Positions 34,819 to 40,067 of a stretch of 43,465 bases of DNA are shown piece by piece. Under the pieces are notes generated by a model. It did no database searches and had not been told where the DNA came from. It saw nothing but the letters and a program-made list of their open reading frames with translations. Source of the stretch: a virus (taxonomy: Duplodnaviria; Heunggongvirae; Uroviricota; Caudoviricetes); IMG/VR virus record IMGVR_UViG_2563366823_000003; one strand, given 5' to 3'. A program made the position numbers and the translations under genes. Numbering within the stretch: position 1 is the stretch's first letter; the number at the start of each line of letters is the position of its first letter.

Positions 34819-35238
34819 ATGGAAAAAGAAAACGAAAAAATTGCCGCTAGTAGGCTCAATGACAAAATTGCAATGCGTCTTAAAGAGCGCAGGCAGAAGC
34901 TTGGTTTATCTCAAGGAAAACTTGCTGAAATCTGCGGATGGACGCAATCGCGTATAGGTAACTATGAGGCGGGCAGCAGAAATGTTGGAGTGCATGACGC
35001 TGTCGTATTGGGAAAGGCTCTTGGCATATCTCCTCCTGAGCTCCTCTTTGGAGAACAGGAATCTTCTGAATTGTGGTTAAATGAATCCCAACGAAAACTT
35101 CTTGAGTTGTTTAACCAGCTACCGGGCTCAGAACAACAACGAATGATTGAGCTATTTGAAGTCCGGCTAAAAGAAATCGATGAGTATGTAGAAAAATATT
35201 TGAGAGGCAGGCTTAAAGATAATCCCCCACCGGAGTAA
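34819..35238 (+). CDS. prophage repressor, RacR-like (XRE-family HTH)
   Basis: 139 aa with HTH LGLSQGKLAEICGWTQSRIGNYE; no peptidase domain; divergent from cro-like gene. Confidence 0.7.
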   Translation: MEKENEKIAASRLNDKIAMRLKERRQKLGLSQGKLAEICGWTQSRIGNYEAGSRNVGVHDAVVLGKALGISPPELLFGEQESSELWLNESQRKLLELFNQLPGSEQQRMIELFEVRLKEIDEYVEKYLRGRLKDNPPPE

Positions 35239-35293: not shown

Positions 35294-35543
35294 TACCATC
35301 ATCATATGACACCCACCACAAAACACATTTCGTGTTGACACAAGAAAACGCATTGTGTTTAATAAGCATATCCAAACAACGCCCCACCAGAGAACGGCAG
35401 GACAATACCTCGAGTTATCCAGCCACTGAACAGGGCTAAGTAGCCAGCCTGAGGCATACGAACATGACGGCAGTTGTTGATTGATACAAAGCGCAGTAGA
35501 TAAAACGTTCCGCCACCCGGCGTTAAGGGGAAATGAGGTCAAC

Positions 35544-35699
35544 ATGGATACTATCGATCTTGGCAACAACGAATCTCTGGTATGTGGCGTGTTTCCCAAT
35601 CAGGACGGCACATTCACCGCCATGACATATACCAAAAGCAAAACGTTTAAAACCGAAGCTGGCGCACGTCGTTGGTTGGGAAGACATTCAGGTGAGTAA
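35544..35699 (+). CDS. small hypothetical protein (51 aa)
   Basis: ATG-initiated ORF MDTIDLGNNESLV... downstream of operator-like palindromes. Confidence 0.4.
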   Translation: MDTIDLGNNESLVCGVFPNQDGTFTAMTYTKSKTFKTEAGARRWLGRHSGE

Positions 35700-35700
35700 A

Positions 35701-35904
35701 ATGAACGAGACAGAATTAAAACACGTTATCGCTCTACTCCTAGAAGATGCAAAACGCCTCCAGCAACTGGAGCCAAATGCAGGCACTGGGGCACGCATCT
35801 GGCTGGCTAAAGAAGCGCTGGAATCTGGCGATTATGATAGCGAAGAAGCCTTCTACAAAGCAGAAGGCCGTGCAGGATATTCACCGGGTCTTGGCGGGGT
35901 ATAA
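35701..35904 (+). CDS. small hypothetical protein (67 aa)
   Basis: ATG 35701 with AGGTGAG upstream; the track start at 35692 is GTG. Confidence 0.4.
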   Translation: MNETELKHVIALLLEDAKRLQQLEPNAGTGARIWLAKEALESGDYDSEEAFYKAEGRAGYSPGLGGV

Positions 35905-35994
35905 ATACCATGCGCATTGACTGAATTCGCAAACAAAAACAGACGCGCGATATCTGGATAGTCGGTCTGCATAGTCAGATATCTGGCTGCGAAT

Positions 35995-36171
35995 TTAATA
36001 AATATCACCGCCCTTTTCGGAAACATAAGTTCCGTCCGGGAGTTGATTATACGAACCATCTCCATGGGGGATCGTTCTCCTGAATCCTAGTGAGAGCATA
36101 TATTTATGAAGCCCTTCGTAATCCTCTGGCTCAGCATTATATAGTTCTACTCTGGCGAGATACGTTGGCAT
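35995..36171 (-). CDS. small hypothetical protein (~58 aa) in the sieB-equivalent position
   Basis: Minus-strand ORF MPTYLARVELYNAEPEDYEGLHKYM... with AAGGAA upstream of ATG 36171; only opposite-strand gene in the early-left operon. Confidence 0.4.
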   Translation of the reverse strand: MPTYLARVELYNAEPEDYEGLHKYMLSLGFRRTIPHGDGSYNQLPDGTYVSEKGGDIY

Positions 36172-36571
36172 ATTCATTTCCTTACTGGTTGTGTGAGAAC
36201 TCCAGTAAAGATACCACCAAAGCCCGGAGGTGGTGAAATAAAACCGGGCACAACACGAAGGCGCATTTCTGGTATCCATAAAGAGTCGGTCTTGTCTGTT
36301 AAATTTAAATGGTGGGAGTGCGCCTCCGGTTGTAAATAACGACATTGCTTTGTGTAGTCTTTGGCGGCATCAGTTCTACTCCGTGGCTGCCCTGCCGCCC
36401 CTTTTTAAAGTGAATTTTGTGATGCGGTGAATGCGGCTAAGCGCACGCGGAACAGTTAAAAGCATCAGTGTTATGGGTGGATTATCCGGCGTTAATTGTT
36501 AACTGGTTAACGTCACCTGGAGGCACCAGGCACCGCATCGACAAAATTCATTTGTAAAAATGGAGATAATT

Positions 36572-36793
36572 ATGATTGCTCATCACTTCGGAACTGATGA
36601 AATACCACGTCAGTGTGTGACCCCTGGCGATTATGTTCTTCATGAAGGTCGGACATATATCGCCTCGGCAAACAATATTAAAAAGCGAAAACTTTATATT
36701 CGTAGCCTGACTACAAAAACATGCATTTCTGACTGCATGATTAGAGTCTTCCTCGGTCGTGATGGTTTACCTGTAAAGGCGGAGTCATGGTAA
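36572..36793 (+). CDS. KilR-like small protein (73 aa)
   Basis: ATG 36572 with GGAGA upstream; size and position match Rac kilR (identity not verified). Confidence 0.45.
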
Positions 36794-36963
36794 TGACTAA
36801 GAAAATAAAATGTGCTTATCACCTTTGCAATAAAGAAATTGAAGAAAGCAAAATCATTACAAGACCACTTCATTTCATGCGTGGAGTTATACCAACGACG
36901 GAAATGAAAAAATATTGTAGTGAAATCTGTGCCGAAAAAAACCAGATGGCACACGAACTTTAA
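36794..36963 (+). CDS. small Cys-rich protein (56 aa), YdaE-like
   Basis: [12 protein letters not shown]...KYCSEICAEKNQMAHEL; below track cutoff; between kilR-like and racC-like genes. Confidence 0.5.
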
Positions 36964-37412: not shown

Positions 37413-40067
37413 ATGAGCACCGATAAACAAGTTTACCCACTGTATTACGAAGCAAAAAATGACAAAGTAAGAAAACGTCTCGGTATTAAAGGCGGTTTCT
37501 ACTGGGCTGAAGCGAAAAAATTATCCATTGCCATCTCCCGTGGTGCTGTTGCGATTGACGATGCTGGCTACGATGAAGATGACTTTAAAAAACCTGTTCG
37601 CGTCAATTTGCCCGTTGTTGATGACCTTCCACCAGAAGGCGTATTTGATACGGAATTCTGCAACCGTTACGAAAAAGGCGGGGAAGATGGCATCACAATG
37701 GTATTTGTCGCGCCCTCACCCTCTGCGCAGGACAAACCAGCCAGCACTGACAATACCAATGTTAATGGCGAAGACATGACGGAGATTGAGGAAAATATGC
37801 TACTCCCGATTTCCGGTCAGGAGCTGCCCATTCGCTGGCTTGCTCAACACGGCAGCGAAAAACCGGTAACGCACGTTTCACGCGACGAACTCCAGGCATT
37901 ACACATTGCACGGGCTGAAGAACTACCAGCTGTTACTGCCCTGGCTGTTTCCCACAAAACCAGCCTGCTCGACCCGCTGGAAATTCGCGATCTCCATAAA
38001 CTGGTGCGTGATACTGACAAAGTTTTCCCTAATCCAGGCAATTCAAGCCTGGGGCTGATGACTGCTTTTTTCGAAGCATACCTGGACGCAGACTACACCG
38101 ATCGCGGTCTGCTGACAAAAGAGTGGATGAAAGGAAATCGTGTTTCACGCATCACGCGCACGGCTTCCGGTGCTAATGCTGGCGGCGGGAACCTCACCGA
38201 TCGCGGCGAAGGTTTCGTTCACGATCTGACGTCACTGGCGCGCGACGTAGCCACTGGCGTACTGGCTCGTTCAATGGACGTGGACATTTATAACCTTCAT
38301 CCGGCACACGCTAAACGTGTCGAGGAAATTATCGCTGAAAATAAACCGCCCTTTTCTGTTTTCCACGACAAATTCATCACCATGCCTGGCGGGCTGGATT
38401 ATTCCCGCGCCATCGTGGTTGCTTCCGTAAAAGAAGCACCAATTGGGATCGAGGTCATCCCCGCACACGTCACTGAATATCTGAACAAAGTACTGACTGA
38501 AACCGATCATGCCAACCCTGATCCGGAAATTGTGGATATTGCCTGCGGTCGCTCCTCTGCCCCAATGCCGCAGCGTGTAACAGAAGAAGAAAAACAGGAT
38601 GATGAAGAAAAACCGCAACCATCTTGCGCAATGGCAGATGAACAGGCAACGGCTGAAACAGTGGAACCGGATGCAACTGAACATCATCAGGACACGCAGC
38701 CGCTGGATGCTCAGTCACAGGTAAATTCTGTTGATACGAAATATCAGAAACTGCGGGCAGAACTCCATGAAGCCCGGAAAAACATTCCGCCCCAAAATCC
38801 TGTCGATGCAGACAAATTACTGGCTGCCTCTCGCGGAGAATTTGTTGAAGGGATTAGCGACCCGAATGATCCGAAATGGGTTAAGGGGATCCAGACCCGC
38901 GATTCTGTGTACCAGCATCAGCCAGAAACGGAACAGAACGACCTAAAATCGGAACAAAACGGCCAAAATGCGCGACAAAATGAACCAGAAGCGCAACAGG
39001 AACTGGAAAAAGTCTGCCATGCCTGCGGTCAGTCTGATGGAGATAACTGCCCTGATTGTGGCGCGGTGATGGGCGACATCACGTATCAGGAAACCTTTAA
39101 TGAAGAAAATCTGGATGAATCTCAGGAAAAAGATCCGGAGGAAATGGAAGGCCCTGAACATCCGCACAATGAGAATGCTGGCAGCGATCCGCATCGCGAT
39201 TGCAGTGATGAAACTGGCGAAGTCGCAGATCCCGTAATCGCAGGAGACATAGAGCCTGGTATTTATTACGGAATTTCGAATGAGAATTACCACGCGGGTC
39301 CCGGTGTCAGTAAGTCTCAGCTCGACGACATTGCTGATACTCCGGCGCTGTATTTGTGGCGTAAAAATGCCCCAGTGGACACCACAAAGACAAAAACGCT
39401 CGATTTAGGAACCGCTTTCCACTGCCGTGTACTTGAACCGGAAGAATTCAGTAACCGCTTTATCGTGGCACCTGAATTTAACCGCCGTACAACCGCCGGA
39501 AAAGAAGAAGAGAAAGCGTTTCTGATGGAATGCGCAAGCACAGGAAAAACGGTTATCACTGCCGAAGAAGGCCGGAAAATTGAACTCATGTATCAGAGCG
39601 TTATGGCTTTGCCGCTGGGTCAATGGCTTGTTGAAAGCGCCGGACACGCTGAATCATCAATTTACTGGGAAGATCCTGAAACAGGAATTTTGTGTCGGTG
39701 CCGTCCGGACAAAATTATCCCTGAATTTCACTGGATCATGGACGTGAAAACCACAGCGGATATTCAACGATTCAAAACCGCTTATTACGACTACCGCTAT
39801 CACGTTCAGGATGCATTCTACAGTGATGGTTATGAAGCACAGTTTGGAGTGCAGCCAACTTTCGTTTTTCTGGTTGCCAGCACAACTATTGAATGCGGAC
39901 GTTATCCGGTTGAAATTTTCATGATGGGCGAAGAAGCAAAACTGGCAGGCCAGCAGGAATATCACCGCAATCTGAGGACCCTGGCTGACTGCCTGAATAC
40001 CGATGAATGGCCAGCTATTAAAACGTTATCACTGCCCCGCTGGGCTAAGGAGTATGCAAATGACTAA
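37413..40067 (+). CDS. recE: exonuclease VIII (RecE)
   Basis: 884 aa; C-terminal nuclease domain [22 protein letters not shown]...DVKTTADIQ...YHVQDAFY; immediately upstream of recT with ATGA overlap. Confidence 0.85.

Follow-up and report, generated by a model that had tools for sequence, protein, structure and literature searches.

A probably inactivated YmfI/DUF2622-family gene in the sieB position of a Rac-like prophage

What stands in the place of the superinfection-exclusion gene in a Rac-like prophage that has no recognisable sieB? The window, by which we mean the whole 43,465-nt stretch of DNA analysed here (IMG/VR record IMGVR_UViG_2563366823_000003), is a Rac-like lambdoid prophage with its early-left operon on the plus strand. 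The operon comprises, in order, an HTH repressor gene (34819-35238), a DUF1391 (ydaF-like) gene (35544-35699), a 67-aa ORF (35701..35904), kilR (36572-36793), a YdaE homologue (36787-36963) followed by a racC-like gene, and recE (37413-40067). On the minus strand, between the 67-aa ORF and kilR, is an ORF of 58 codons from ATG to TAA (35995..36171), which the original prediction took for an unrecognised, soluble gene of about 58 aa, the only opposite-strand gene of the operon, put there in exchange for sieB. In the identical public scaffold GCA_000352645.1, gene calling likewise leaves it as the sole opposite-strand gene from recE to the cro-like gene.

The placement of the ORF can be read from its relatives. 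Comparison with Rac K-12 by blastn finds homology at 35540-35683 (ydaF) and at 36210-36880 (spacer, kilR, ydaE) and loses it over 35684-36209, where K-12 carries sieB with its leader, on the opposite strand between kilR and ydaF; phage 666R9 shows the same pattern, with sieB in the slot. The sieB gene of lambda is likewise the lone opposite-strand gene of its pL operon, between N and ral, and with flanks conserved relative to Rac K-12 the ORF does occupy the sieB position. Because homology holds on both sides and is lost across sieB, the breakpoints also support the predicted swap of the exclusion gene for a different small cargo, within a cassette that blastn and alignment delimit, relative to Rac K-12 and 666R9, at 35684..36209. 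Other phages fill the same place differently: in Rac-SA53 it holds an unrelated 77-aa gene, rac10, with homology to the window reaching through the leader and the ATG, and in 683R6 it is empty. The slot of Rac-like prophages is an exchangeable one, holding sieB, rac10, a gene of the YmfI/DUF2622 family as here, or nothing. Salmonella homologues share with the window a 350-nt module (35856-36205, 89.7% identity) that comprises the gene, 34 nt of leader and 25 nt past the stop. The leader itself (36172..36209, minus strand; placed by alignment, sequence comparison and blastn breakpoints), which includes the Shine-Dalgarno sequence AAGGA (36183-36179), is common to the Salmonella homologue and to rac10, and the exchange point lies near or at the start codon, downstream of this shared leader.

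Could the ORF simply be what is left of sieB? Position is all that speaks for a degraded fragment. SieB aligns to the 96-aa read-through of the ORF (described below) with a BLASTP E of 0.7, and tblastn of SieB over the whole window returns nothing beyond 16 residues matched by chance at a distant site; with no SieB similarity in the ORF or anywhere in the window, and with a different hydropathy and fold besides, the ORF is not a sieB fragment, and we give that reading no credence. SieB of Rac, lambda and P22 resembles the window gene in slot, opposite-strand orientation and conserved flanks, but it is a 162-aa membrane protein without sequence similarity to the window protein, which is soluble and ferredoxin-like. 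The highest 19-residue Kyte-Doolittle mean is 0.56 for the 96-aa read-through, which includes the 58-aa ORF, against 2.19 for Rac SieB, so that neither sequence similarity nor membrane segments would place the protein with SieB. On hydropathy, the 58-aa ORF is soluble, and the prediction that it is not membrane-like was right.

The ORF is also more than a chance reading frame. Its ATG (36171) follows the AAGGA by 7 nt, and its TAA is at 35995-35997, just as predicted. It matches positions 1-57 of the 94 in the PHROG 8894 profile (E 3e-22), and its closest database proteins are 95-aa Salmonella proteins named "DUF2622 domain-containing", to which it is 86-89% identical over 58 residues (E 1e-26 to 8e-28). 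These matches establish the ORF as coding, and together with a match to NCBIfam YmfI_phage they remove the label "unrecognised" as far as the family is concerned: homologues already bear the names DUF2622 or GhoS. We also considered a 116-aa form extended upstream to a start at 36345 and rejected it; the family profiles begin only at its residue 59, no such product is recorded, and its upstream half falls in the non-coding conserved spacer beside DicF. Pfam has no match for either the 58-aa or the 116-aa form.

The predicted length, by contrast with the predicted position, did not survive. Past the TAA the frame remains open for 37 codons and a stop (35881..35994, minus strand), reading IRSQISDYADRLSRYRASVFVCEFSQCAWYLYPAKTR and then TGA, and this stretch is a near residue-for-residue match to the C-terminal part of the Salmonella 95-aa proteins. 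The complete in-frame translation, which opens with MPTYLARVEL, reaches GGDIY, crosses the stop and runs on through IRSQISDYADRLSRYRASVFVCEFSQCAWYLYPAKTR to the final stop, aligns with these homologues from end to end. What was called a gene of about 58 aa is the front of a 96-codon gene (35881..36171, minus strand; terminal TGA at 35881-35883) interrupted by an in-frame TAA at codon 59, and the locus is probably a pseudogene. The premature ochre codon (35995..35997, minus strand) turns on one base: plus-strand position 35997 is A here and G, giving CAA for Gln, in all seven E. coli relatives that were fetched for the allele comparison from the 19 complete E. coli genomes carrying the gene's DNA. 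A single C>T transition from CAA to TAA at codon 59 probably inactivated the gene.

The family at large is of full length. A profile search of 1.84 billion representative proteins gave 854 clusters at E<=1e-3, nearly all of them 92-98 aa long with a match spanning the whole profile; a few representatives have only 61-77 aa. Measured against intact frames of about 92-98 aa, the window copy falls short at its TAA. In terms of the secondary-structure map of the AF2 model, its 58 codons cover only strand 1, helix 1 and the beta-hairpin/strand 3 region: the stop sits two residues into alpha2, and alpha2, beta4 and a nearly invariant Trp and Leu near the C terminus, all encoded in the 37 codons that go untranslated, are lost. 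Without helix 2 and strand 4 the product has no way to complete the fold, so it is most likely non-functional; that the window copy is indeed non-functional we consider probable, with good confidence.

This is the point at which a complete, functional cargo gene of 58 aa has to be weighed. Its good Shine-Dalgarno sequence and ATG, the calling of the exact product on four contigs and the few short family representatives would all suit such a gene, but 37 conserved codons continue the frame past the TAA, a single base sets the ORF apart from its closest relatives, in which the stop position encodes Gln, the family has 92-98 aa with a conserved C-terminal Trp and Leu, and the fold lacks helix 2 and strand 4, all of which makes such a gene quite improbable. 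The opposite reading, which blames sequencing or assembly for the TAA and has the organism carry an intact gene, appeals to the fact that a single base separates the window from its nearest relatives. We think it very improbable: the identical 58-aa product is called on four separate public contigs, one of them a 2.0-Mb scaffold, so the TAA allele is real and not a one-off error, and the gene has been disrupted independently elsewhere.

The 96-codon ORF is intact in six of the seven fetched relatives; in the seventh, PEC399 (L008 1500-1790), a TAA arose independently at codon 9 and the stop codon is gone. The intact E. coli protein (P0159 in the protein collection, with 40 member sequences) is accompanied by frameshifted or deleted variants (P0012, P0009, P0001 and P0006), the frame being shifted near residues 50 and 72 or internal segments deleted. 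A dN/dS of 0.33 between the copies of E. coli and Salmonella indicates purifying selection on the intact gene. The cargo gene is present in 19 of 5426 complete E. coli genomes, and in all 19 the RefSeq/PGAP annotation over the ORF is blank.

Independent disruptions of the family gene recur in E. coli and in Shigella, which could mean either that selection is relaxed in cryptic prophages or that the gene is costly.

Our reading, held with high confidence, is that sieB was replaced by a prophage accessory gene of the YmfI/DUF2622 family, of which the window has a recently inactivated copy. Still firmer is the assignment itself: we have little doubt that the 58-codon ORF is a truncated member of this family, which is catalogued yet uncharacterised. 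Against NCBIfam YmfI_phage (NF051477) the read-through aligns over residues 3-90 of 96 with profile positions 3-88 of 89 (E 4e-14), at a score of 52.9 bits under an equivalog cutoff of 140, and it therefore belongs to a related (sister) subfamily and is not a YmfI equivalog. Among the closest known systems is YmfI of the cryptic prophage e14 (E. coli K-12 b1143), whose homology spans the entire protein (26% identity and E 1e-9 by BLASTP; hhalign 97.7%) and whose gene is likewise a lone opposite-strand gene of the early-left operon, one gene from the repressor, converging on and overlapping the small ymfJ. YmfI differs in lacking Arg7 and His22, which the main family keeps, and so represents a different subfamily, and it differs from the window copy in that the latter is cut by a stop codon. 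In the main family Arg7, Tyr18 and His22 are invariant or nearly so. A review lists YmfI among genes with a potential SOS box (PMC6590174). The narrow family alignment matched four viral contigs. PADLOC-DB v2 gave no match at E<=10 for the 96-aa protein, two homologues or rac10, and a literature search on DUF2622, KilS and sieB-slot hotspots returned nothing relevant.

What would the intact protein do? The intact gene encodes a soluble protein, about 96 aa long, whose modelled ferredoxin-like fold (beta-alpha-beta-beta-alpha-beta) comes closest to those of the endoribonuclease GhoS and of Cas2. No other structure matches as well as GhoS, and the fold has the GhoS-like ferredoxin form. At the level of sequence the likeness is fainter. 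The 96-aa read-through has no match at E<=10 to PF11080 (GhoS), the family formerly named DUF2622, whose gathering threshold is 21 bits. The close homologues P0002 (12.3 bits) and P0004 (16.1 bits) stay below that threshold, and 23 of 70 diverse, more distant family members match at E<=0.01 (best E 2.4e-8), GhoS being the only Pfam family matched recurrently. Since distant members match PF11080 and the window protein does not, the profile link to GhoS is a transitive one. Aligned by hhalign to the GhoS sequence alone, the family gives a weak result (35% probability, E 4e-4). Searches of PDB sequences with two family profiles yielded chance matches only, and Foldseek against the viral BFVD library found nothing significant.

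GhoS cleaves RNA in a sequence-specific way and has a Cas2-like fold (PMC3997798). This type V antitoxin endoribonuclease (YjdK; PDB 2LLZ) differs from the window protein, which is about 13% identical to it and falls below the Pfam threshold, and it belongs to a chromosomal two-gene operon, whereas the window gene is phage-borne and stands alone without a ghoT partner. The small ferredoxin-fold nucleases Cas2 and VapD are unlike it as well, with no sequence-level signal and no CRISPR or VapX/VapW context. The GhoS-like fold, the weak profile similarity and the GhoS name that NCBI gives to some homologues might still suggest the antitoxin of a prophage-borne type V pair of the GhoS/GhoT kind, but such a pair is highly improbable here: tblastn of the window with a GhoT sequence finds no GhoT-like ORF, no small hydrophobic ORF lies downstream on the same strand, and the downstream neighbour is convergent or unrelated in every context examined. 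No membrane toxin gene is adjacent, and in 10 other contexts the neighbours are unrelated.

A fold shared with RNases suggests, by analogy, an RNA-directed activity of the intact protein, a possibility that we hold tentatively. The family might instead share only its fold with GhoS and Cas2 and act by binding protein, perhaps so as to inhibit one made by the host or by a phage. This we put at somewhat under an even chance. Against it, GhoS is both the best structural match and the sole recurrent Pfam family, and the (near-)invariant Arg7, Tyr18 and His22 of the main family are compatible with a nucleic-acid site.

The genomic company of the family speaks to when such a gene would be expressed. 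Its members sit in accessory positions of prophages and temperate phages: in Salmonella prophages on the opposite strand, flanked by kil/KilR and the CI repressor gene; near the C2 repressor, as the lone opposite-strand gene, in Pseudomonas phage Cruim01; between the Q antiterminator and holin genes in a Citrobacter prophage; and opposite to their neighbours in Burkholderia and in another phage contig. No conserved partner gene was seen across the contexts examined. In five lineages a small convergent ORF overlaps the 3' end of the family gene, as the 67-aa ORF does here by 24 nt. Accessory genes that are expressed in the lysogen, sieB among them, would usually be placed in this way, and by that analogy we consider it rather likely that the gene was one of them.

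One metagenomic contig (L032 3017-4294) has a family member 12 bases after the gene for a 323-aa protein on the same strand, a single case; the 323-aa protein has a faint reverse-transcriptase (RVT_1) match, and the region also holds AbiEi/AbiEii genes.

Expression in the lysogen would call for a promoter of the gene's own, for which the original prediction had pointed to 36172-36350. A consensus scan finds no site in that interval. By eye alone, a candidate can be made out at 36208..36237 on the minus strand, consisting of TTCACC (36237-36232), an 18-nt spacer, a TG (36216-36215) and TATCTT (36213-36208); the scan did not pick it up, and the motif is kept in Rac-SA53 (TATACT) and in Salmonella (TATGCT). 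The sole minus-strand hit of the scan, at 36510..36481, would give an RNA antisense to DicF.

The leader region (36179-36234, minus strand) folds into two hairpins (z = -2.3), the second of which (36211-36179) pairs with the Shine-Dalgarno sequence. Its stem is UACUGG/CCAGUA in the window and in Rac-SA53 and UGCUGG/CCAGCA in Salmonella, one compensatory pair. If the candidate promoter picked out by eye is correct, the 5' arm of the hairpin would go untranscribed, so the promoter and hairpin readings conflict.

How might the locus have come about? In the explanation that we favour, the gene entered a Rac-like prophage by cassette exchange and displaced sieB, while the spacer with the DicF/KilS sRNA, kilR and, on the other flank, the ydaF-like gene were retained. 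In the window, the change of CAA to TAA at codon 59 ends translation after 58 residues. The intact gene, like sieB, was probably transcribed in the lysogen from its own promoter, against the repressed early-left operon, and convergent early-left transcription during lytic growth would probably silence it. The intact protein may act on RNA and bind or cleave particular transcripts to the lysogen's benefit, perhaps by excluding other phages or by neutralising a toxin mRNA.

A broader proposal is that YmfI/DUF2622 proteins are orphan GhoS-like endoribonucleases, carried as lysogen-expressed cargo in exclusion slots, the sieB position among them, of temperate phages across Proteobacteria. Their targets would be specific RNAs, either from superinfecting phages or encoding toxins of the host or of phages. 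We regard this proposal as unlikely. [quoted passage not shown] For the window itself the main outcome is a corrected annotation, in which the "58-aa gene" becomes a nonsense-truncated 96-codon gene; being a truncated copy of a catalogued family gene, the 58-aa ORF is not to be pursued as a new mini-protein. The feature is real and its explanation ordinary. Whatever the family does, the window copy most likely does not do it, and any exclusion or RNase activity would reasonably be sought in the intact allele of sister strains.

Several neighbours of the gene merit mention in their own right. The spacer upstream of kilR holds a DicF-type sRNA with its terminator (36349..36400, plus strand), a full-length match to Rfam RF00039 at 63.5 bits against a gathering threshold of 48 (E 6e-13), with a terminator-like hairpin at 36383-36398. 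The spacer is conserved, and the sRNA is a neighbour of the gene and not part of it. At the homologous place Rac of K-12 has the annotated sRNA KilS; the K-12 and Rac-SA53 versions fall below the DicF threshold, and the 3' halves differ. An STnc100 (RF02076) match at 36390-36579 on the plus strand reaches 46.2 bits, with the gathering threshold at 47, and spans the 5' untranslated region of kilR. The YdaE homologue has a near-threshold match to the eukaryotic Rtr1/RPAP2 zinc-finger family (32.5 bits, threshold 33). Finally, the convergent 67-aa ORF appears chimeric: its first ~42-45 residues match the longer families PHROG 12693 and 2982, and PGAP in sister genomes treats the first ~42 codons as an incomplete pseudogene. 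Its last 16 codons (KAEGRAGYSPGLGGV) lie inside the module shared with Salmonella, where a convergent ORF of 82 aa ends in a similar KAEGRSGSSSGLGPV.
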